DNA from: a virus
Reading direction: 5' to 3' (one strand)
Length of the DNA stretch: 64,000 bases
IMG/VR virus record: IMGVR_UViG_3300036852_000503
Below are positions 17,204-63,698 of the stretch, piece by piece; within the stretch, counting starts at the first letter, position 1; each line of letters opens with the position of its first letter. Position numbers and translations under genes: made by a program. The notes beneath the pieces are model-generated. The model saw nothing but the letters and a program-made list of their open reading frames with translations. It had not been told where the DNA came from and ran no database searches.

Positions 17204-17281
17204 GGCACGGTAGCTCAACGGTAGAGCAACGAGCGGCGGGAGTCGCTCTTACGGTTCCAGGTTCGAGTCCTGGACGTGCCG
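17204..17281 (+). tRNA. tRNA-like gene with a non-canonical anticodon arm (identity undetermined)
   Basis: Acceptor GGCACGG/ACGTGCC (6 of 7 bp). D-arm GCTC-AACGGTA-GAGC. T-arm CCAGG-TTCGAGT-CCTGG. Between them are 28 nt instead of about 22: a 5-7 bp stem (GAGCG/CGCTC core) with an 8-nt loop GCGGGAGT, and a 6-nt variable region. Confidence 0.45.
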
Positions 17282-17329
17282 CGCAGCACTAGACACAGAC
17301 GCAGTGACAGTGAAAGACAGATCGGAAAA

Positions 17330-17401
17330 CCCCGTTAGTGGAGGTTCGAGTCCTTCCCGGGACACTCATGCCCCGGTAGCCCAATTGGCAGAGGCGCGGG
17401 G
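17330..17401 (+). ncRNA. Circularly permuted tRNA-like unit B (3' half then 5' half)
   Basis: Order: CCCCG (17330-34), TTAGT, T-arm GGAGG-TTCGAGT-CCTTC, CCGGGAC-A, linker CTCAT, GCCCCGG (17370-76), TA, D-arm GCCC-AATTGGCAG-AGGC, G, CGGGG (17397-401). Acceptor strands pair 6 of 7. CGGGG/CCCCG form a perfect 5-bp anticodon stem. Total 72 nt. Confidence 0.4.
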
Positions 17402-17470
17402 ACCCGCACAGACACTCGCTGCAGACACAGCACGCACGCCTAGGACCGGATCGACTGGTCGTGTCAATGA

Positions 17471-17562
17471 TTCCGAGACGGTGGTTCGAATCCGCCCGCG
17501 CGCTCCAAACATCATGCGCGCGTAGTAGAGTGGCAACACGCGGATCCCTAAGACAAAGTCCG
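17471..17562 (+). ncRNA. Circularly permuted tRNA-like unit C (3' half with encoded CCA, then 5' half)
   Basis: Order: TTCCG (17471-75), AGAC, T-arm GGTGG-TTCGAAT-CCGCC, CGCGCGC-T-CCA (to 17507), 8-nt linker, GCGCGCG (17516-22), TA, weak D-arm with GG, G, CGGAT (17541-45), CCCTAAG... Acceptor pairs 7 of 7; CGGA/TCCG pair. The downstream segment alternatively forms CGGAT-12 nt-GTCCG (17541-62). Confidence 0.35.
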
Positions 17563-17595
17563 ACCTGCACCGCTGCCGGTACGCCGAATAGGCAG

Positions 17596-17667
17596 TACAT
17601 CAAAGCTCAATGGTCGAGCAACTGACTTCTAATCAGTGTGAAGCGGGTTCGATTCCCGCTGATGTCA
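17596..17667 (+). tRNA. tRNA-Arg (anticodon TCT)
   Basis: Acceptor TACATCA/TGATGTC (6 bp plus a 1-72 mismatch). D-arm GCTC-AATGGTC-GAGC. Anticodon arm ACTGA-CTTCTAA-TCAGT. Variable GTGAA. T-arm GCGGG-TTCGATT-CCCGC. Discriminator A; no encoded CCA. Confidence 0.85.
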
Positions 17668-29952: not shown

Positions 29953-31470
29953 ATGACCGCGTTCGTGATCGTCGCCGCTGGGCTCGGTACCCGCGTGGGC
30001 CGGGTCGGCGAGTCGTTGCACAAGTCGCTGATTCCCCTCGCGCAGCGCGCCGTGCTGTCGCACCTCTTCGACCTGGCGCCTCGCGACGCGCGACTCGTCG
30101 TCTGCGTGGGTCACCGCGCCGGTCAGATCCGTGACTACGTGGCCTTGGCGCACCCGCAGCTCGCGGTTGAGTTTGTCGACGTGCCCGACTGGAACGGGCC
30201 TCACGGAGGACCTGGGGCGTCGCTACTGGCCGCTCGCGAGGCGGTGGGCGACGACGACGACCTGATCGTCACGTCGTGCGACACGCTCTGGGGCCGTGAC
30301 CAGGGTCTCTGGCACGACTCGAGTTCGTGGGTCGCCGTCGCGCCCATTCCCGCGGGCACCGACCCGATCCGCTGGACGCGCGTGGAGCACAACTCCGATC
30401 GCGTGTCCACGATCTACGACAAGCGTCACGGCGGTAGCGGCAACGAGCCGGCGTGGACCGGTCTGGCGCGCGTCGCGGCGCGGGACCTGCCCACGTTCTG
30501 GTCCGGGTTGACGAGCGCGCGACCGGCGCACGAGTTGCAGATCGTAAGCGGACTCGACGAGATCAGACACAACCTGCGGGTCAAGTGGATCGACTGGACC
30601 GACGTCGGCGACGAGACCGCGTACGCGAGCGCCGTCGCGCGCGTGAGCGGTTACGACTTCGTCAAGTACGACCAGGCCACGTACGTGCTGCCCACCGAGG
30701 GCCGGGTCGTCAAGTTCAACGCCGACCCGGAGGTGATCACTCACCGAATTCACCGCGCCGCGCACCTCACGACGATGGTGCCGACTCCGATCGTGTCGGG
30801 CAACGACGCCACGCTCATGGCGCACCCGTACGTTCCCGGCGTCACCGCGTACGACGCGGTCGAGCTGCACGACGTCGAGCTCACGCACCGCATTCTCGAC
30901 TGGTTCGACGCGACGGTGGGCAGCTCGACGGCGCACGCGCCGCTACCCGGTGCGCGCGGCACACGGCAGAGTTTGAACGAGTTCTACGTGAACAAGACCC
31001 TCGGGCGCGTCGCGCAGCTTCCCGCGCGGCTGCGGGCTTCCGCGCGCGATGCGGTGGACGCGGTCGACTGGGTCGCGCTGCTGGACGGCGCGGTCTGGGG
31101 GACGCCGCACGGCGACTTCAACCACGGCAACATCATCGTGACGCCGGGTGGCGAGCTGGTCGGCATCGACTGGCGCGAGAACTTCGCGGGCAGCTACTAC
31201 GGCGACATCCGCTACGACCTGGGCAAGCTGCTCGCCGGAACGGTGGTGCACTGGCAGCGTGCCCAGTGGGGCGACTTCCGACCCTGGGTTGAGGGTGAGA
31301 AGCACGCGCTGGCGATCCGCGAGTTCGTCGAGCGCATGCCCGGCGTGGACGTCCGCGACATCGAGATCATCGGCGCGCTGTCACTTCTCAACTGCGCCCC
31401 ACTCCACGCGGCGCCGCTCGACGAGATCCTCGTCGCGCGGGGCTGCGCGTGGCTCCAGCGGGTGCTGTGA
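29953..31470 (+). CDS. Bifunctional sugar-1-phosphate nucleotidyltransferase / APH-choline-kinase-fold sugar kinase
   Basis: 505 aa. N-terminal VIVAAGLGTRVGRVGESLHKSLIPLA (NTP-transferase G-loop). C-terminal HGDFNHGNIIV...GIDWRE (kinase catalytic loop plus DxD-like). Confidence 0.7.
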   Translation: MTAFVIVAAGLGTRVGRVGESLHKSLIPLAQRAVLSHLFDLAPRDARLVVCVGHRAGQIRDYVALAHPQLAVEFVDVPDWNGPHGGPGASLLAAREAVGDDDDLIVTSCDTLWGRDQGLWHDSSSWVAVAPIPAGTDPIRWTRVEHNSDRVSTIYDKRHGGSGNEPAWTGLARVAARDLPTFWSGLTSARPAHELQIVSGLDEIRHNLRVKWIDWTDVGDETAYASAVARVSGYDFVKYDQATYVLPTEGRVVKFNADPEVITHRIHRAAHLTTMVPTPIVSGNDATLMAHPYVPGVTAYDAVELHDVELTHRILDWFDATVGSSTAHAPLPGARGTRQSLNEFYVNKTLGRVAQLPARLRASARDAVDAVDWVALLDGAVWGTPHGDFNHGNIIVTPGGELVGIDWRENFAGSYYGDIRYDLGKLLAGTVVHWQRAQWGDFRPWVEGEKHALAIREFVERMPGVDVRDIEIIGALSLLNCAPLHAAPLDEILVARGCAWLQRVL

Positions 31471-54884: not shown

Positions 54885-56648
54885 TTACAGGTTGAAGCCG
54901 GTGCCGTTAGCGGAGCCGGTGCGACCGTTGACGGCGAAGTTGATCGTGTACTGCCTGGACTCGTGACCCACCCGGGCGATCAGGTGGCACTCCTCCGACC
55001 ACGCCGCGGTGTGGTCGTTCGTGGCGTTCAGCACGCTGTCCCGCACGATGCCGAGGTCCAGGGAGAGACCGTTGCCGAGGACGAACGTGCCCGCCGCGTA
55101 GATCATGATCGTCGCCGACGTCGGCCACGCGGTCAGCGCGGTGGCGTTGCCGAACTGGCCGGCGCCGCGCACCTGGTAGTCGTTGACCCACTGGACCCGC
55201 ACGTTGATCGTGGCGAAGTCCGAGTCGATCTCGGCGTCGCTGATCTGGTTTGCCTCCACGCCGGTGCGCCACGCGAGGTCGGCCCGGATGGTGGCCTTCA
55301 GCCAGTACGGCGCGATGACCTCCAGGACGTCGTCCTGGCACATGCCGTAGCGGGCCCGGTAGTCCGTGGCGCCGAGTGAGATGCCGCCGTAGACCTGCTG
55401 GTAGACCGGCTGGCCGGTGACCGCGTAGTTGCCGGTGCTGATCGCCGCGGCCGACAGCGTGGTCATCTGCTGGAGGAATCGGCCGTTCATGGCGTGCGCG
55501 TGCGCCGACATGAGCAGCTGGAGGAAGTTGGACGTCGCCTCGGGGTACGCGTCGTCGGTCAGGTTGCCCGCCGTCAGGCAGACGCCGTAGCACTCGAGGC
55601 GCGTGTCGGTGAACGTCGGGCACGGGACGCGGACACACGGCTTGGTCGGCGAGCCGGTGACCGCGGCGATGTCGCTCGCCTCGGTCCAGAGCCACGGGTT
55701 GGACGTGACGCTGAACGCCGTGCTGAAGCCGCCGAACGCGACGCCGCTGAAGACGTCGGCGAGCGACGGGGAGACCGGGAACCGAACGCCGCCGCGGCTG
55801 ACGCCGAACGTCGGGAGGTCGACCAAGCCGTCCTCGCACGCGATGTTGAAGAAGTCGTACCGGACCTCGGACGGCGCGCACCAGCCACCGGCCGCGACCA
55901 GCGCGTTCTTCTTGTCCTGCGAGGTGATGTGCCGCAGCAGCTCGCCGACCTGACCGAGCGAGGTGCGGTCGTCGACCGTGTGCTCATACTCGTTGCGGAT
56001 CGTCGCCACGAGCTGCTGGTTCGGCGCGTTCTGCGTGACCGGCATCGCGCGGGCCTTCTTCTGGAAGATCTCCGTGAGACCGTCCAGCCCGTTGACGCCG
56101 TCGCCGCGCGCGACGCCCGGGATGTCCACGCTCGCGGTGACCGCCAGCTTGGCCCGGGGCGGCGACGCGGTGACGGGCGCGAACTGCTGCGCCTGCGACA
56201 GCGAGGCGCGCTGCGTGGCCTGCGTCACGGCGCGCGGCGACATGCGGTCGCCGAGGATGTTGACCAGTGCGGCCGTGGCGCCCTGCGTCGCCGCGGCCGC
56301 GATGGCCGTGAGGTCGATCGCCGGTGCCGCGCTCGGCTTGGTGCTGTCGAGCTGCTGCGCGCCGTGCACACGCGCGTCGAGCATGGCCTGCTGCGCGATG
56401 AGCTTCGCACGCTCGGCCTCGCTGGCCTGCGCGGCGCGAGCGACCCGGCCCTGAAGTTCGGCGCGGATCCGATCCAGACCGTCGGCCAGCTTCGCGGCGT
56501 AGGAGACGATCTCCGGGGAGACCTCCTCCGCGTTGATGCGGGTGTACTCGGCGACGATCTGCGCCTCGAGTGTCGACAGTTCCTCGTGCGACGTGATGAG
56601 GGTGAGATCCTGCGGAACGTTCACAAGCTCCTCAGGCTTTCCGGGCAC
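54885..56648 (-). CDS. Major capsid protein with an N-terminal scaffold-like coiled coil
   Basis: 587 aa. The first roughly 120 aa are helical/charged (AELQGRVARAAQASEAERAKLIAQQAMLDARV), followed by AAGGWCAPSEVRYDF...PCVRVPCP. Follows the protease gene after a 200-nt leader. Confidence 0.65.
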   Translation of the reverse strand: MPGKPEELVNVPQDLTLITSHEELSTLEAQIVAEYTRINAEEVSPEIVSYAAKLADGLDRIRAELQGRVARAAQASEAERAKLIAQQAMLDARVHGAQQLDSTKPSAAPAIDLTAIAAAATQGATAALVNILGDRMSPRAVTQATQRASLSQAQQFAPVTASPPRAKLAVTASVDIPGVARGDGVNGLDGLTEIFQKKARAMPVTQNAPNQQLVATIRNEYEHTVDDRTSLGQVGELLRHITSQDKKNALVAAGGWCAPSEVRYDFFNIACEDGLVDLPTFGVSRGGVRFPVSPSLADVFSGVAFGGFSTAFSVTSNPWLWTEASDIAAVTGSPTKPCVRVPCPTFTDTRLECYGVCLTAGNLTDDAYPEATSNFLQLLMSAHAHAMNGRFLQQMTTLSAAAISTGNYAVTGQPVYQQVYGGISLGATDYRARYGMCQDDVLEVIAPYWLKATIRADLAWRTGVEANQISDAEIDSDFATINVRVQWVNDYQVRGAGQFGNATALTAWPTSATIMIYAAGTFVLGNGLSLDLGIVRDSVLNATNDHTAAWSEECHLIARVGHESRQYTINFAVNGRTGSANGTGFNL

Positions 56649-56850: not shown

Positions 56851-59430
56851 TTAAACCTCCTTGAGAATGCGCTTGCCCAGCATTGCCATGACGTGCTTGA
56901 GCGCGTCGCTGTCACGCTCCTGCTCGGTCATGATGTTGCCGATGGTCATGAAGCCCGCGGCCACCAGCGACTGCGGTACGCCGCTGGCGATGCGCGCCCG
57001 CGTGCGCAGGTGGAAGCCCGCGACGTTGACGCCGAGTAGACCGACCAGGCGCAGCTCGCCGCCGATGCGCCGCCAGTCGCCGCTCACTCGGCCGGACGCC
57101 CGCAAATCGTGCACGCGCGCCGACTCGGCGTGCGGTCGGATCGCGCCGGCGACCCAGATGCCGACCTCGTCGTTACCCACGACGACGTCGGCGACGACGC
57201 TGCCCGTGTTGTCGTAGTGCTCGGCGGCGCGCGACGCGCGGTACGACAGCGGCGCGTGGCCGGTGGCCACCGTGATCTGGCCCACGGCGACGTGCGAGCC
57301 GTCGGCGCACACCACCTCACCGGTCATGAAGTACGGGTGCGCGTCCTCGACCGGCGGGCTCACGCAGATGTCGTCGAACCCGACGTGGCACTCACCCCAC
57401 TGCGCGGCGTGCCCGTAGACGCGACCCTGGTCGGTGATGGTGATGCCGACGGGAACGCTGAGTCCCGGGTTCTCGAACCACGCGCTCGGCGGTCGCCACG
57501 CGTCCAGCTTGGCCTGCTCGGCCGCGGCCACCAGCGTCGCGTCGTTGAACTGCGCCGGTGGTGGCTCGCGGTCGGCGTCGCGGAGGTGCGCGGCCAGGTG
57601 ATCGTAAATACCCTGACGCTCGCCGGCCGGCACCGTTGTGCCGCCTCGACCGCCGTTGAGTACGCCGATGCCGCTGGAGCACGCCGTGAGGTTGGCCGCG
57701 CCGGGCTTGCCGTCGGCCCCGACCTCGTGGTGCAGGAACTTGGCGGCCGACTTCGTGACCTTGCCGTTCTCCACCGCACCGTCGTCGAGCCAAGCGTAGC
57801 CCATGCGAGCCGTGTCGACGGACATCGGCGACGGCAACCGCTTCTCGTTGATGCCAACATCCCAGGGGACATCTGACGTGGCCGTAGAATGCGTGCCAAC
57901 GGCGCCAAACTTCAGCTCCGCTACGGCTGCCAGGGCGGCCGTGAGCGCGTCGACGTCGTCGCCGACCAGCGAGACGGTCGCCTCGACGAATGCCGGGATG
58001 TCGACCAGTGTGGCCCCGCGAACGCGCCCGCCGTGGTATACGATCTTCTCCGGGCGGCCGAACAGCGCGTCCAGTGGGTTGCCGGCGTCGCCCTCGTCCC
58101 CCGTGGGCGACTCCGGCCAGACGACCTCGACGTCCGCGTCGGCGATGTCGTCGGCGTCGATCGAGATGCCGCCCGCGAAGCCGTCGTTGAGCCTGCGGCG
58201 GATCTCGAAGCCGTCGGGGCTCTTGATGTCGAGCACGCCCGCGCCCATGATCTTCTCGCCGTCGCGCCACACCTTGTCGGCTCGACCGACGGTCACGGTG
58301 ACGTCGTGCTCGCCGCCGTGCGCCGTCTCCTTCTGCCAGCGGATCAGCACCTGGTCCGCCCACGTGAGCGCGCCGGGTGCGAACTCGCGACCGTCGCCGG
58401 TGGTGATGCCCTCGACGGCCAGGACGCCCGTCCACAAGCGCGCCTTCTCGAACTCGGCGTCGGTCATGAACGAACCGTCGCCAACACGCTGGTAGCCGGC
58501 GGGCGTCTCGCCGTCGCCGGGCATCATCTTGTCGCCAGGCATGCCGTCACCACCGGTCACGGCGAACGTACTGGTCGAGACGACGCCCATCTTTCCACCT
58601 TCGTCGTTGGTGTAGAGCGCGGCAATCTGCTCGTCGGCGGACTGCTCGGTGTCGTGGCAACCCATGACCTCGTCGTTGTCATCCTGCACGACGGCCCACG
58701 GTTCGGCCGCCGAGCACGCGGCGTGGTTCTCCACCTTGTGCCACGGCATCGGTGCACCTCCCAATGATGATGTTAGTGTAACAGGTTCGCCCAACGGCAC
58801 GTCGGTGACGTCATTCCCGAACGCGACACGGACCTGATCGAACGTCACCGGGCCGACTCGCTCCGAAACGGCATCCAGTAGATCCTCATCTGAGTACGCA
58901 ATGCAAATGTGCGGCTGCCACGGCATGTGCTGCTCGGGCATGTCGAATTCGCTGAGATTCGACCTAATGAGGGCACGGATCGTCGCGAGCTGCGACTGAC
59001 CGTCCTCACTGGTCTCGTCGCTCGCGTCGCCGACGTTGACGACCCACGCCGGCTCGTCGCTCCCGGGGTTCCAGTGTGCCACGCCGAACGCGTTGCCCTG
59101 GATCGGCCAGAACTCACGGGCCACCTCCGTCACCGCGTCGACGACGTAGTTGCGCACGTCATCCGGGAAGTCGCTCTTACCCAGGTACCAGAGGGTGAGG
59201 TGCAGCTCGTCGGCGGGTTCGTACCCGTCGAGCGCGAGTCGCGCGACGTCGGCGTCGCTTGGGACCAGGGCGATCATGCCACCGTCGAACTTATCTGTGT
59301 TAACTGCCGCGGTGACGACGTCCAGAGGTTCACCGTTGAGTAGTCGTGTGATCTCGTCGTTGGTGAAGCCCTCGTCCTCATCCACCACGGTGAACATGAC
59401 GTTATTCGGATCGGACAACGGCGTTGACAC
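56851..59430 (-). CDS. Capsid maturation protease with an N-terminal 2H (LigT-like) phosphoesterase domain
   Basis: 859 aa. Residues about 50-205 carry two HxT/S-type motifs (ELHLTLWYLG; QPHICIAYS) in LigT-like spacing. The middle and C-terminal parts resemble prohead protease regions (GVLAVEGITTGDGREF..., GHAAQWGECHVGF). Confidence 0.6.
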   Translation of the reverse strand: MSTPLSDPNNVMFTVVDEDEGFTNDEITRLLNGEPLDVVTAAVNTDKFDGGMIALVPSDADVARLALDGYEPADELHLTLWYLGKSDFPDDVRNYVVDAVTEVAREFWPIQGNAFGVAHWNPGSDEPAWVVNVGDASDETSEDGQSQLATIRALIRSNLSEFDMPEQHMPWQPHICIAYSDEDLLDAVSERVGPVTFDQVRVAFGNDVTDVPLGEPVTLTSSLGGAPMPWHKVENHAACSAAEPWAVVQDDNDEVMGCHDTEQSADEQIAALYTNDEGGKMGVVSTSTFAVTGGDGMPGDKMMPGDGETPAGYQRVGDGSFMTDAEFEKARLWTGVLAVEGITTGDGREFAPGALTWADQVLIRWQKETAHGGEHDVTVTVGRADKVWRDGEKIMGAGVLDIKSPDGFEIRRRLNDGFAGGISIDADDIADADVEVVWPESPTGDEGDAGNPLDALFGRPEKIVYHGGRVRGATLVDIPAFVEATVSLVGDDVDALTAALAAVAELKFGAVGTHSTATSDVPWDVGINEKRLPSPMSVDTARMGYAWLDDGAVENGKVTKSAAKFLHHEVGADGKPGAANLTACSSGIGVLNGGRGGTTVPAGERQGIYDHLAAHLRDADREPPPAQFNDATLVAAAEQAKLDAWRPPSAWFENPGLSVPVGITITDQGRVYGHAAQWGECHVGFDDICVSPPVEDAHPYFMTGEVVCADGSHVAVGQITVATGHAPLSYRASRAAEHYDNTGSVVADVVVGNDEVGIWVAGAIRPHAESARVHDLRASGRVSGDWRRIGGELRLVGLLGVNVAGFHLRTRARIASGVPQSLVAAGFMTIGNIMTEQERDSDALKHVMAMLGKRILKEV

Positions 59431-62400
59431 TAGGCACCTCCCTCAACGACGACGCGAAGCTTCACTACTCGATCTTTTGGATTATCTGGGTGCGGCTGCG
59501 AACTGATGATCTTAAACTGCGTGCCGGGCGCCAGCGCCATCTCATTCTCATCCGGCCAGTAACTTAGCTCCTTGAGCCACGCCATTCGCGAGCCCTTGGG
59601 CGCGTCGATTTCAATGTGAACGTTGCCGCTCCAAATCCCATTCTTGATGCTCGTGCTCATGACGCCCTTGTCCGTGATGGTCTTACCCACCATCTCGTCC
59701 AGTTTTTCAGGCACGTACACACCAAACGAGTTAAATGTAGTCTTGCGATACAGCACAATGTCGTCGGTGCTTGTCTTCATTGCCGCGTTGATCTGCGCAA
59801 TAGTCTTGCGGGTGCCCTCCGTGCAACCTTGGTAGCCGGTGCCGCGTAGGCAGTTGTTGACCTGAACGTACGCCGGACCTGTGTACTTCTTAAGCGCGGC
59901 GCGCTGCGCACCGTTGATCGGCGGCGGATCGACCACGTTCATACGCTTCTGCAGTTCGTTCGCGTCAGCCTCCGTGAGCTCACGCGGTAGCGGTGTGAAC
60001 GACACCGTGGGTTTGGGGGTTGGGTTGCTTTGCAGCAACGCGTGCTTCTTACCACCAGGTGTTTCGAGAAACGCGTGAACCTTGGTGTAGAACGGCTTGG
60101 TGGGGCCACCTTTGTCCGACTGGTCCATAATGTTGAGCGCATCGTTCATAGTTAGTCCAGGATGTGTCTTGGACACTTCGAACGCGGCGTCGTACATCTT
60201 CTTGCCCGGACTGCTCGCCTTGGCGCTGTGCTTCTGGAAGATGGCCTTCGTCTTGATCACGTCATCAACTGGGTACTTCTTCTCGATGACTGGTGTCGGC
60301 ATGTTCAACACAGGCTCGATCGGCTTCTCACCGGTGATGTACCGGTCGATAAGATCTTGCCGGCGCAGCGTGAGCTTCTGCTTGAGCTTAGCCGCGGTGG
60401 CGCCGGTGAACCCGGCGGCGTCTACCAGCTGATTGATCTGGTGAGGTTCGATGGCCTCGATTTTCTTGACACCCTTGCGAATGTCGTCGTCGGTGATGTC
60501 GGCGTAGATCTTTGCAGCAATTGGGTTGAGAGTCTTATCACGCAGCGAGCTGGTTTCGGTAACGGCGTCGCCAAAGTTGAGACCCTTCGGTGACCCATCC
60601 GCACGGTAGAGTAGTGAGCCACTTGGGTCTGTGCGCACCGGGTGGCCTGGCTTATCGGCGATGATGTTCTCACCGTAACCGCCGACCTCCGTGTTGCCAA
60701 GCCACGCGTCGATCGCGAAGTCCTCGTACAACTTACTCTTAAACTGTGGGTTGTCCATGTTCTGCGACATCTTGCCGAGGCCCTGGACGTGCTTCCACTG
60801 CGTGCCTAGTTCATTGGTCTTGCCATGGAAGAACATGTTGTCGACGGCGACGAACTCGGCATCGGGCACGTCGACGCCCGCGAGCTGGTACAGCTTACTT
60901 GCCAGAAGCGTGTTGCGGGCGGCCGACTGCGAGGGCGCGGACCTAACGTAGACTTCATCACCGTTCGGATCGGCGAACACCGCGCCCTTCGCGAAGCTGG
61001 GAGGCGTCAACCGCTTGTATCCGGCCATGGGCTTGACGTTGGCGATCGACGTCAGGGGCGACTTAGGCACCGTGGGCGACGTGGTCAACGGAGCCGACGT
61101 GGTGGGTGCGGCTGGTGCGGCCGGCGTCGTCGGCGCGATCGTCTTGACCAATTCGTCCGACGTGACCGGCTTGGTTGACGCGCTCGGTCCAGGTGCGCTC
61201 GGCTGCTTACTGGCGCCGCTTCCGTACCGATTGATCAGATCCTGACGCCGGGCCTTCAACTTCGTCTTCAGTTCTTCCGAGGTGTTGCCGGAGCTGAAGT
61301 TCGCCGCGTCCACCATGTCGTCGATCTGCTTAGGTGTGATGGCCTCGATCTTGGCCACACCCCTGCGAATGTCCTCGTCGGTGATGTCGGCAAAGATCTT
61401 CGCGCTCTGCGCGTTGAGCGCGGGGTTGCGCAGCGTGTTGATCTCGGTGACCGTGTCGCCGAAGCTTGAACCCTTCGGCGTACCTTGCGCGCGGAAGAGT
61501 AGCGCGCCGCCGGAGTCGATGCGCGCCGGCTCGCCGCTCTTGTCGGTGATGACGTTGTCGTAACCCAAGCCGACGACATCCCAGTTTGCGAGCCACGCGT
61601 CGGCGGCGAAACCCTCATAGAACTTACGCTTGAATTCTGGATCCTTGATTCTCGTCGCGATGTTGGTGTCACCCGTGATGATGCGCGACTTGGTGCCGAG
61701 CGCGCCGTTCTTTCCCGGAAACGACGCGTCGTCCAACTTGACCAGCTCGACGTCCGGCGTCCGAACGCCCGCGAGTTCGTACAGCTTGTTGGCCAACACC
61801 TCGTTCTTGGCGTGGTTACCGCTCTTCGACGCCTTCACGTAGTGAAAGTCACCGTTGGGATCGATAAACGACCCACCCTGCTGCGATCCTTGCTTCCCAC
61901 CTACCTTGGTGAACCCCGCCATTGGCATGGGGTCGTCGATCAGCTTCTTAGGCTTGGCGGGTGTCGTCGCCTGCGCCGCGGTCGGACCGTTGTCGTCACC
62001 CGGCTCGAACCACTCGGCGTCGTACGACTTAATGGCGTCATACGCCTTGGTCTTAATGGCCGTCTGGTCAACCTGCCACTCGCCGTTGGCCTGCCTACTC
62101 TGCAGACTGTACCGGTCGCCCTCCCACACGATGCGCTTGTCACCGCTCTTGTTCGTGGCGAGCGTCGTGCCGGCTGGTCGCTTCTTATGCACCAGGGCGT
62201 GCGTGATCTTAAGAGGCTTACCCGGCGTCTTGGCACTAGGTGACGTTCTGGACGGCGCACCAGGTGACGTTGTCGTCGGCACGTTCGTCGTCGCCGTCTT
62301 ACCCTCGTCACCCGGCTCGAACCACGAGGGCGCGTACGCGTTGACCGCCACGTACGCCTTGGTCTTGATCGCGGTCTGATCGGTCTGCCACTCACCGCTG

Positions 62401-63698
62401 GATCGCTTGTGTTGGAGGTTGTACTGCGTGCCGTCCCAGACGACCCGCTTGCTCTGGTCACCGCTCACCGCCGTGACGGTGCCCGGCTCACGCTTCTTGT
62501 GAATGAACGCGTGCGTGATCTTTACCTGCTTGCCGAGTGCACCGGCTGAGCTGGACTTACCGGACGGCCCAGGTGGGCTACCCAAGTCTCCCGCACTCGG
62601 CGCACCCGACGACTTAGCAGCCGAGTCGTCATCGTCATCCGGCGTGAACCACTCGGTATCGAAAGCCTTGATCGCGTTGTACGCCTTGGTCTTAATCGCA
62701 GTCTCTTCAACGGTCCACTCGCCGTTAGGCTGCTTCCGCTGGAGATTATAATACATACCTCCCCACACAGCACGCTTATCACCGGTCTTGTTGATCGCAA
62801 TGACCGTTCCCGGCTCGTGCTTCTTGTGGATCAGCGCGTGCGTGATCTTAAGTGACTTGCTGGACGCGCCACCCGGAGTCTTGGCGAACTTACCGTCGCT
62901 GTCGCGTGGGTGCTTTCCCGGAGTCCAGTTGGGCGACGCCGCGGCGGCCAACGTGTCGTCGTAGTCGAGGAACTCATCATCCGGGATGTCCCAGATCAAA
63001 GTGCACCTGCAGTTAATGGTCTCACCCGGCGGTGCGGTGGGATCGTGCGGCCGGTCCATCGGGTAGCCGCCTACCGTGAACTTTCCGCGCATGTCGACGA
63101 CCTCGCCGTTGACGGCGACGTGCGTCGGGCGCGTGTGGCCGTCGTGCGTGGCGAGCCACTCCTTGGTGGCGTCCAGCGTCGTGGCCGTCATCTGCGCGTA
63201 CGAGCCCGCCTCGCTCGCGGCCATCACCTCGTTGCGCGCGATCACTTCGGCGCGCGGCAGCGCGATGTCGGTGGTCGCGACGATGCGATCACGGATCTGG
63301 TCGATGCTCTCGCCGTTGAGGTTGCCCTCGATCATCTGCTCCCGCGCGACGTTCCAGACTAGGTCGCCGATGTCGCGCAGCCGGTTCTTAACGCCCACGC
63401 GAAAGAAGTCGGCGATCGACTGCACCACGCGCGGAATGCTGATGGCCGCGGTCAGCGCGTGCTCGTGTAGCTGCCGCCACGTGTCGTCCGCCGACTCCCG
63501 CCACACGCGCATGACGTGATCGGCGAGTCGCTGGTCGATGCGAATCGCCCACTGCGTGCGGATCGTGATGAGGTCGTCCACGCTACGCACGCGTGATGCG
63601 ACGTGCTTCAGCGTCGCTGTGACTTCACGCCGGACGAGCGCGGCGAACTCGTCGCCGCGCCGGTCCAGCTGCTCAAGAGTGGGACCCGTTACGCGCAC
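59430..63698 (-). CDS. MuF-like minor capsid protein fused to repeats, two kinase-like modules and a C-terminal ADP-ribosyltransferase toxin domain
   Basis: 1422 aa. MuF/SPP1 gp7 motif HTRPTHVAVNGEVV...PPGETINCRCTL. Three repeats of about 70 aa (KITHA(L/F)(I/V)HKK...AIKTKAY...WF(E/T)P). Two paralogous modules of about 235 aa. ART R-S-E motifs VLYRKT, VMSTSIK, PDENEMA. Confidence 0.85.
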   Translation of the reverse strand: MRVTGPTLEQLDRRGDEFAALVRREVTATLKHVASRVRSVDDLITIRTQWAIRIDQRLADHVMRVWRESADDTWRQLHEHALTAAISIPRVVQSIADFFRVGVKNRLRDIGDLVWNVAREQMIEGNLNGESIDQIRDRIVATTDIALPRAEVIARNEVMAASEAGSYAQMTATTLDATKEWLATHDGHTRPTHVAVNGEVVDMRGKFTVGGYPMDRPHDPTAPPGETINCRCTLIWDIPDDEFLDYDDTLAAAASPNWTPGKHPRDSDGKFAKTPGGASSKSLKITHALIHKKHEPGTVIAINKTGDKRAVWGGMYYNLQRKQPNGEWTVEETAIKTKAYNAIKAFDTEWFTPDDDDDSAAKSSGAPSAGDLGSPPGPSGKSSSAGALGKQVKITHAFIHKKREPGTVTAVSGDQSKRVVWDGTQYNLQHKRSSGEWQTDQTAIKTKAYVAVNAYAPSWFEPGDEGKTATTNVPTTTSPGAPSRTSPSAKTPGKPLKITHALVHKKRPAGTTLATNKSGDKRIVWEGDRYSLQSRQANGEWQVDQTAIKTKAYDAIKSYDAEWFEPGDDNGPTAAQATTPAKPKKLIDDPMPMAGFTKVGGKQGSQQGGSFIDPNGDFHYVKASKSGNHAKNEVLANKLYELAGVRTPDVELVKLDDASFPGKNGALGTKSRIITGDTNIATRIKDPEFKRKFYEGFAADAWLANWDVVGLGYDNVITDKSGEPARIDSGGALLFRAQGTPKGSSFGDTVTEINTLRNPALNAQSAKIFADITDEDIRRGVAKIEAITPKQIDDMVDAANFSSGNTSEELKTKLKARRQDLINRYGSGASKQPSAPGPSASTKPVTSDELVKTIAPTTPAAPAAPTTSAPLTTSPTVPKSPLTSIANVKPMAGYKRLTPPSFAKGAVFADPNGDEVYVRSAPSQSAARNTLLASKLYQLAGVDVPDAEFVAVDNMFFHGKTNELGTQWKHVQGLGKMSQNMDNPQFKSKLYEDFAIDAWLGNTEVGGYGENIIADKPGHPVRTDPSGSLLYRADGSPKGLNFGDAVTETSSLRDKTLNPIAAKIYADITDDDIRKGVKKIEAIEPHQINQLVDAAGFTGATAAKLKQKLTLRRQDLIDRYITGEKPIEPVLNMPTPVIEKKYPVDDVIKTKAIFQKHSAKASSPGKKMYDAAFEVSKTHPGLTMNDALNIMDQSDKGGPTKPFYTKVHAFLETPGGKKHALLQSNPTPKPTVSFTPLPRELTEADANELQKRMNVVDPPPINGAQRAALKKYTGPAYVQVNNCLRGTGYQGCTEGTRKTIAQINAAMKTSTDDIVLYRKTTFNSFGVYVPEKLDEMVGKTITDKGVMSTSIKNGIWSGNVHIEIDAPKGSRMAWLKELSYWPDENEMALAPGTQFKIISSQPHPDNPKDRVVKLRVVVEGGA

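Follow-up and report, generated by a model that had tools for sequence, protein, structure and literature searches.

In a stretch of 64,000 nucleotides (nt) from the IMG/VR virus record IMGVR_UViG_3300036852_000503 (hereafter the window, meaning the whole stretch analysed), the open reading frame (ORF) list and domain matches revealed a single ORF of 859 amino acids (aa) that places a 2H phosphoesterase in frame with a head-maturation protease gene (56851–59430, minus strand, GTG start). As read from its sequence and structural model, the N-terminal part of this ORF is a 2H phosphoesterase with both catalytic histidines intact, and its fusion partner is probably an HK97-family prohead protease. 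The protease is almost certainly also translated alone, judging from an internal start that is conserved among joined ORFs. The best explanation as a whole, which we consider to have about an even chance of being right, is that nested products are made, that the 2H enzyme is packaged via the protease, and that it is ejected and hydrolyses a phosphodiester in the host.

An initial annotation of this DNA, made from the letters and translations alone, had proposed a 2H fold with two catalytic histidines and LigT-like spacing, and had named structure prediction as a check. Profile searches, AlphaFold2 with Foldseek and the conservation of H77 and H174 all bore out this proposal. An alignment of 44 homologues of the 2H part (A1) was the basis of both the search profile and the AlphaFold2 model. 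Among PDB sequences, the A1 profile first matched Thermus LigT (1iuh; E 1e-6), whose two motifs fell in line with those of the domain, and next PH0099, E. coli ThpR and a Deinococcus cyclic phosphodiesterase (CPDase). A search of PDB sequences with the whole ORF gave TrkA chance matches only. The domain matched PHROG 2659 ‘RNA ligase’ over aa 38–215 (E 7e-25) and Pfam PF13563 (2_5_RNA_ligase2) over aa 66–190 (E 4.8e-5; 23.9 bits, just under the gathering score of 27), and a precomputed PF13563 match is present in most close homologues of the 2H domain. The TIGR02258 match was below threshold (15.7 bits, cut-off 65.7). The model had a mean predicted local distance difference test score (pLDDT) of 86.9, with blocks of 93–98 over most of aa 50–210 and about 81 at aa 131–150. 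When it was compared with the PDB by Foldseek, all of the 50 best matches were 2H enzymes (probability 1.00, best E 7e-7), among them Usb1, LigT, CPDases, a Burkholderia phage phosphodiesterase, Acb1, AKAP18 and rotavirus VP3. The fold extends over aa 50–213 (58792–59283, minus strand); the extent first proposed, 58816–59283 (aa 50–205), had the correct start and ended slightly short.

The active site is conserved in the A1 alignment, where H77, L78, T79, L80 and H174 are invariant. Motif 1 is H77-L-T-L (aa 77–80; 59191–59202, minus strand) and motif 2 is H174-I-C-I (aa 174–177; 58900–58911, minus strand), an H-x-C variant of H-x-T. The cysteine had initially been described as a departure from Thr/Ser, and we considered it as a possible mark of inactivity. 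A survey of the clade led us to reject this idea: motif 1 was H-x-T in 326 of 332 domains, and motif 2, counted over the 262 domains that fit a strict pattern, was H-x-C in approximately 175 and H-x-T in approximately 83. Most domains of the clade have conserved this cysteine, which is therefore no sign of decay. The domain is apparently enzymatically active, as far as its residues can tell. The LigT/ThpR enzymes (Thermus 1iuh, E. coli 5ldi, Pyrococcus 1vdx, Deinococcus 5h7e), which are the best profile matches, agree with it in fold, size and motif spacing. They differ in sequence (12–17% identity), whereas the window protein, whose activity is predicted, has the cysteine in motif 2, an N-terminal leader and the fusion to a virion protein.

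The fused ORF differs from a two-gene arrangement by a single codon. In the contig of a relative (L005), the stand-alone 2H gene ends in ...P L D TAA and is followed by a 36-nt spacer and a GTG start; the window reads ...P L G GAA, a near-identical spacer and ATG in a single frame. The 859-aa ORF is continuous because GAA (Glu215; 58786–58788, minus strand) replaces the TAA of L005, and comparison of the two junctions places it one base away from the two-gene arrangement. The former intergenic spacer, recognised by its near-identity to the untranslated spacer of L005, has become a linker of aa 216–227 (PVTLTSSLGGAP; 36 nt, 58750–58785, minus strand). It is followed by an internal ATG (Met228; 58747–58749, minus strand) at which, per the annotation of split relatives, the 632-aa product of the protease gene begins. 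This ATG aligns with the GTG start of the 593–614-aa genes found in L001, L002, L003 and L005, and these genes of the relatives begin V-P-W-H downstream of a GGAGGTG ribosome site. The same 12–13-codon linker occurs in 7 other direct fusions, and it has been kept across lineages whose protease parts are just 52–55% identical to that of the window. We considered programmed stop-codon readthrough, but the window, lacking a stop at this place, has no need of it. In L005 (8649–8687), the TAA is followed by the 36-nt stop-free spacer in frame with the protease start, and readthrough there would recreate the fusion of the window; such readthrough is possible in L005 only.

To characterise the internal start, we used a set of 47 ORFs in which the protease is joined to an upstream module (2H and/or MuF), and whose junctions represent 29 distinct sequence contexts. 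An in-frame ATG or GTG was present exactly at the first residue of the protease in 47 of 47 ORFs. In 41 of the 47, this codon is preceded by an exact GGAGG at a distance of 3–10 nt, compared with 32 of 2657 (1.2%) other in-frame ATG/GTG codons of the same ORFs. In the window, the internal Shine-Dalgarno sequence GGGAGGTG (58755–58762, minus strand), identified from the sequence and from the conservation of GGAGG, also codes for Gly-Gly in the linker. As the internal start and the GGAGG are retained in joined ORFs, two products are likely to be made, the protease by itself and a long 2H-protease. The latter would be an additional form, probably of minor abundance.

Gene position, structural matches and an invariant His/Ser pair point to the probable identity of the fusion partner. 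The C-terminal 632 aa of the ORF lie between the gene of a MuF head protein carrying an ADP-ribosyltransferase (ART) domain, hereafter MuF-ART, and the major capsid protein gene, and relatives have the same order. The AlphaFold2 model of this part had an overall pLDDT of 63, being good at residues 1–50 and 290–400, mostly good at 80–270 and poor at 420–607. Compared with BFVD, it matched actinophage entries named ‘capsid maturation protease’ at E 1e-19, generic entries for the COG3740 head maturation protease (1e-7) and the HK97 family prohead protease (2e-6), and the prohead protease of Streptococcus phage SpSL1 (E 1e-5; target-normalised TM-score, TMt, 0.60). In a Foldseek comparison with the PDB, T4 gp21 and the human cytomegalovirus protease came top at a non-significant E of 0.3. 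The HK97-type (S78-like) protease fold itself occupies aa ~307–497 (57940–58512, minus strand; pLDDT mostly 78–92). It contains H371 and S423 (H144 and S196 in the numbering of the 632-aa part), which are 52 residues apart and invariant in 36 homologues, and which we infer to be equivalent to His65 and Ser114 of HK97 gp4. The protease part had zero Pfam matches, its profile found nothing among PDB sequences, hhalign of this profile with HK97 gp4 gave no match, and TIGR01543 (aa 342–424, E 0.074) scored 13.2 bits, below its cut-off of 59.

We then surveyed 86 loci, comprising 80 IMG/VR loci, five contigs and the window. The protease ORF was fused to 2H in 40 loci, and 2H was encoded in a separate upstream ORF in 21. 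A further 9 loci had a protease with an N-terminal extension lacking 2H (MuF-like where examined), 3 had no 2H upstream, and 13 were truncated. An N-terminal 2H domain was present in 49 of the 120 best homologues of the 632-aa part, these 49 being 805–1095 aa long. A neighbour-joining tree of 64 protease sequences implied at least 5 changes between the fused and separate states, and at least 10 changes among five architectures. The fusion reported in the initial annotation is real, the ORF being continuous, and it is recurrent; it is a one-codon state that has changed repeatedly in the tree. In relatives of 1075–1095 aa, a segment of ~250–340 aa between 2H and protease was considered as a new domain and rejected, as it is a divergent MuF (PF04233 at a weak E of 1.6e-3, with a C..C/CRG motif).

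The 2H clade is large and resides in the head-assembly module of actinobacteriophages. At E≤1e-3, an exhaustive profile search returned 4979 representative clusters, of which 798 reached E≤1e-30. Architectures were counted, approximately, from the best 150 representatives: MuF-2H-protease (~28), 2H-protease (~24), 2H-ART (~9), MuF-2H (~8), MuF-2H-ART (~2), MuF-2H-protease-ART (~1), MuF-ART-2H-protease (~1) and 2H without other recognised domain (~77). The order 2H-MuF-protease was likewise found among relatives. Isolated phage records with the clade number 421, of which 209 are from Mycobacterium, 184 from Gordonia and 17 from Streptomyces phages, besides a few from others. Their genes are labelled ‘RNA ligase’, ‘head maturation protease’, ‘capsid maturation protease’, ‘capsid maturation protease and MuF-like fusion protein’ or ‘LigT’, and the label ‘RNA ligase’ is probably misleading. 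On sequence evidence, a virion-delivered enzyme fits this wider pattern of recurrent fusions between the clade and MuF, the protease or Alt/VIP2-type ARTs.

We propose that two proteins would be made in the manner of lambda C/Nu3: a 632-aa protease/assembly protein, probably the bulk, and an 859-aa form with N-terminal 2H. In lambda, an in-frame internal start yields an abundant short protein for assembly beside a longer one with the same C-terminus; the extra N-terminal part is the protease itself in lambda, whereas it is an unrelated enzyme in the window. The long form would then be drawn into the procapsid by its protease moiety, and maturation cleavage would release 2H inside the head. At the next infection, the freed 2H would exit with the DNA, beside the MuF-ART. 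Phage T4 offers a precedent, in which Alt and the internal proteins are sent into the prohead, cut down by gp21 and ejected, and SPP1 gp7, of the MuF family, is a head-internal protein. In T4, a short targeting peptide brings cargo into the prohead, where the prohead protease releases it; in the window, fusion to the protease would take the place of such a peptide. In the last and least certain step, 2H would hydrolyse an RNA or nucleotide phosphodiester in the new host, with candidate substrates being 2',3'-cyclic phosphate ends, 2'-5' or cyclic oligonucleotide immune signals, and, in a Usb1-like role, RNA 3' ends. A more elaborate version, which we put forward tentatively and regard as somewhat improbable, would make the prohead protease a delivery vehicle in which the internal start sets a low ratio of long to short form, a one-codon switch toggles loading or swaps it for the MuF route, and the Cys-variant 2H disarms nucleotide- or RNA-based defence at DNA entry.

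Parts of this logic have been proposed before. Aravind's group predicted, first in 2017 and again in 2022, that phages package and inject 2H domains fused to MuF or portal proteins (PMC5512222, PMC9503650), and Iyer et al. proposed a Usb1-like RNase role or the destruction of 2'-5'/cyclic nucleotide defence signals (PMC5512222, PMC9503650).

Several observations weigh against packaging and delivery as we propose them. The model resembles Usb1, LigT, CPDase, Acb1 and VP3 to much the same degree (target-normalised TM-scores 0.55–0.67), which does not single out a substrate. In 21 of 61 informative loci, 2H is held as a separate protein, and because a third of these loci are split, fusion to the protease is not needed for 2H function. 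The closest homologues of the 2H part (55–60% identity) are stand-alone proteins of 215–305 aa, and since these nearest relatives are all split, some room is left for a single-base assembly error. HK97-type proteases usually self-digest and leave the head, hence a passenger 2H could be degraded too. Finally, a literature search for virion proteomics or enzymology of any clade member found none, and a search on virion proteomics of LigT-like proteins and on the Burkholderia phage BCSR5 phosphodiesterase found nothing useful.

The alternative that best survives, unlikely as we judge it, is that 2H acts late in infection in the cytoplasm of the producing cell and is not packaged, the joining being a neutral and reversible accident between late genes that is tolerated because the protease has its own start. 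The fused and split states differ by a single codon with at least 5 switches among 64 relatives, the split state is frequent (21 of 61), the fusion is dispensable for protease supply given the internal start, and Mycobacterium phage Alice has a stand-alone 183-aa copy, all of which favour such an accident. However, MuF, on either side of 2H, and virion-type ARTs are further fusion partners of the clade, and ~60 of the 150 representatives are long single polypeptides with head proteins, a pattern that is hard to explain without a shared destination. Retention of the direct-fusion linker across lineages with protease parts 52–55% identical to the window's also speaks for more than accident.

Alternatively, 2H could partner the adjacent ART, processing an ADP-ribose/NAD-derived phosphodiester, such as ADP-ribose 1'',2''-cyclic phosphate (Appr>p), or limiting the transferase, instead of acting on RNA ends or immune signals; we consider this distinctly less likely again. 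Its appeal lies in the translational coupling of the 2H ORF to the MuF-ART gene via a TAGTG overlap, in architectures combining 2H and ART (13 of 150 representatives), and in the A. thaliana CPDase being among the best structural matches (TMt 0.65, root-mean-square deviation 3.8), plant and yeast 2H CPDases being known to hydrolyse Appr>p. Yet Appr>p comes from Tpt1/KptA-type enzymes and not from Alt/VIP2-type protein ARTs (PF03496), the ART is absent from the same protein in most clade members, and co-occurrence may reflect shared packaging alone.

It is very unlikely that the fusion in the window is a one-base assembly or sequencing error, with TAA read as GAA in a phage that really has two genes. 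It is true that a change of one nucleotide would give the split state of L005, that the nearest 2H homologues all stand alone, and that the exact database product of 848 aa, called from Met12 (P0082), was not traceable to a contig record. Nevertheless, the database cluster of this product has 2 member sequences on 2 contigs, and with 7 other loci showing the same direct fusion and linker, and 40 loci fused overall, the joined state is biologically common.

The least probable of the alternatives, likewise very unlikely in our view, is that 2H heals RNA ends in support of the phage RtcB and tRNA genes against damage by host anticodon nucleases. RtcB seals 2',3'-cyclic or 3'-phosphate ends directly, and the 2'-phosphate product of ThpR-type enzymes is not a substrate for it. 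RtcB (55–1224) and tRNA genes (17204–17667) are present in the window and LigT/ThpR enzymes rank among the best matches of the domain in both sequence and structure, but the RtcB gene is ~58 kb away in another module, adjoining neither the 2H gene nor the tRNA genes, the context of the 2H gene is purely head assembly, and these phage 2H versions are reported never to accompany RNA ligases (PMC5512222), so that the link to RtcB suggested in the initial annotation is weak and a functional one unlikely.

In comparison with the systems of Iyer, Burroughs, Anand, de Souza and Aravind (PMC5512222, PMC9503650), the window shares the superfamily, the head-module context, the MuF and Alt/VIP2-type ART neighbours and the packaging logic; it differs in having a prohead protease as partner, not MuF or portal, and a junction formed by a single stop-to-sense change with a retained internal start. 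Annotated actinophage genes of the same 2H clade include Gordonia phage Lennon gp18, Streptomyces phage Mischief19 gp12, Mycobacterium phage Alice gp88 and Rhodococcus phage E3 gp74, which are only 30–48% identical to the window protein and bear mutually conflicting annotations. Mischief19 gp12 is a MuF-2H-protease with HLTL and HICA motifs, and Lennon gp18 joins 2H to the conserved C-terminal domain of the protease gene, with 2H downstream, unlike in the window. Acb1 (PMC9117128; 7t26/7t27), rotavirus VP3 and coronavirus ns2 are viral 2H enzymes that destroy nucleotide immune signals, a role similar to that proposed here. Viral 2H structures, including Acb1 and VP3, matched the model in Foldseek at E 1e-4 (TMt 0.58–0.67), with Acb1 (7t27/7t26; E 1–2e-4, TMt 0.58–0.59) at ranks 34–38, below LigT, Usb1 and CPDases. 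Acb1 and the 2H proteins of eukaryotic viruses appear to be no closer to the window protein than cellular 2H enzymes, and a sequence-level relationship with it is not apparent. To our knowledge, Acb1 is a small soluble protein and is not reported as a virion component in the T4 literature. We conclude that this architecture occurs in hundreds of actinophages sequenced to date, in which its annotation is poor, and that the window is a well-supported new example and not a new kind of system. What we add is the exact structure of the junction, the single codon that toggles a locus between fused and split, the internal start whose conservation implies two products, and the H-x-C typical of the clade; none of these is mentioned in the portions of PMC5512222 and PMC9503650 available to us.

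The remaining parts of the ORF, all on the minus strand, are as follows. The GTG start (59430–59428) is preceded by the Shine-Dalgarno sequence GAGGGAGGTG (59435–59444), by direct reading, and the TAG stop of the MuF-ART gene (59432–59430) shares one base with this GTG, an overlap also found in relatives L001–L005. The N-terminal leader (aa 1–49; 59284–59430; TPLSDP.NV.F.VV...GFT.DE..R.L.G.P in A1, model pLDDT 65–81) is kept only where 2H is an N-terminal or stand-alone module, and in MuF-2H fusions the 2H profile match begins at position 40–50. The protease part opens with a small beta-beta-beta-alpha domain (aa 228–277; 58600–58749; PWH..C...GCH...AL, pLDDT 88–96), in which C12, C31 and H32 (632-aa numbering) are nearly invariant and which may bind metal. 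In other architectures, this domain is a separate module far from the protease domain. Downstream of the protease fold lies a confidently folded middle domain (aa ~517–627; 57550–57882; pLDDT 75–94, mostly ~90), with Y318, A319, H340, H341, H384 and H388 invariant (632-aa numbering). The highly conserved C-terminal domain (aa 651–837; 56920–57480; phrog_18402, E 3e-64) is the segment labelled ‘capsid maturation protease’ in isolates and matches Lennon gp18 aa 12–202. It is the most conserved part of the protein, with dozens of invariant residues including GH..W..CH, TGHAP and VSGDWRRIGG; its AlphaFold2 pLDDT was 25–45, and it had no match in PDB or Pfam.

The window has a G+C content of ~66% and the genome is actinobacteriophage-like. 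A 10-kb region compared with isolated phages by megablast had zero DNA-level matches, and the major capsid protein is ~34% identical to its Streptomyces and Gordonia phage counterparts. The structural module runs on the minus strand from ~63.7 kb downward, its first three genes being MuF-ART (1422 aa, 59430–63698), the 859-aa ORF and the major capsid protein (587 aa, 54885–56648; NF033847 MCP_Sipho, E 4.4e-157). In the contigs of split relatives, the gene order is terminase, small gene, DUF1360 protein, portal-sized protein, MuF-ART, 2H, 593–614-aa gene and capsid protein. MuF-ART has PF04233 at aa 120–235 (E 3.9e-14) and, at its C-terminus, the Alt/VIP2-type ART domain PF03496 at aa 1262–1403 (E 2.3e-18). 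Between the two (aa ~280–1230), direct reading of the translation revealed three tandem ~100-aa repeats (LKITHAL.HKK..GT......GDKR.VW.G..Y.LQ......EW....TAIKTKAY.A.......WF.P) followed by two tandem ~270-aa repeats (PMAG....G......F.DPNGD..YV......A.N..LA.KLY.LAGV..PD.E.V...DAWL.N.........N.I........R.D.GG.L..RA.G.PKG). Neither repeat type matched Pfam, and self-BLAST gave the identity hit alone. Replication and repair genes in the window encode DNA polymerase A, a SNF2 helicase, a PD-(D/E)XK nuclease, thymidylate synthase, a Prim-Pol/D5 primase-helicase and RtcB, the last a full-length RNA ligase at the far end of the window (minus strand; PF01139, E 4.6e-120). ARAGORN found, on the plus strand, a tRNA-like gene (17204–17282; ‘tRNA-???’, undetermined two-base anticodon gg) and a normal tRNA-Arg(tct) (17596–17667). 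A 505-aa protein in the replication module (29953–31470, plus strand) combines a MobA-like nucleotidyltransferase (PF12804) with an aminoglycoside/choline-kinase-type phosphotransferase (PF01636), an unusual pairing.

Two observations were made in the relatives. A module of ~60–75 aa (YWTKDP.GLAKW....HPWT.L..HLKKHM....AKR.A.EWYHEVKGHWP) ends the stand-alone 2H proteins of the nearest relatives (L001 8700–8888, L002 8700–8882) and is lacking in the window; the same type of module lies between the protease-type domain and 2H in Lennon gp18 (~aa 285–345, L089), and it may have a head-targeting or interaction role. In a MuF-protease fusion without 2H (L026, IMGVR_UViG_3300037515_000297, ~695–2806), an intein (PF14890, E 2.5e-10) splits the MuF domain at a conserved Cys motif.

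For the annotation of these phages, the conserved internal start provides a simple rule for spotting nested head genes in high-GC genomes, and the labels ‘RNA ligase’ and ‘capsid maturation protease’ are inconsistent, neither of them covering the whole protein. Because the clade is present in cultivable Gordonia, Streptomyces and Mycobacterium phages, the idea of delivery is directly testable. Should 2H indeed travel in the head and be ejected, the phage would possess a ready-made counter-defence enzyme that works ahead of any phage gene expression, and such early timing would matter against fast defences based on nucleotide signals, such as CBASS, type III CRISPR, Pycsar and Thoeris-like systems, and against RNA-cleaving defences.

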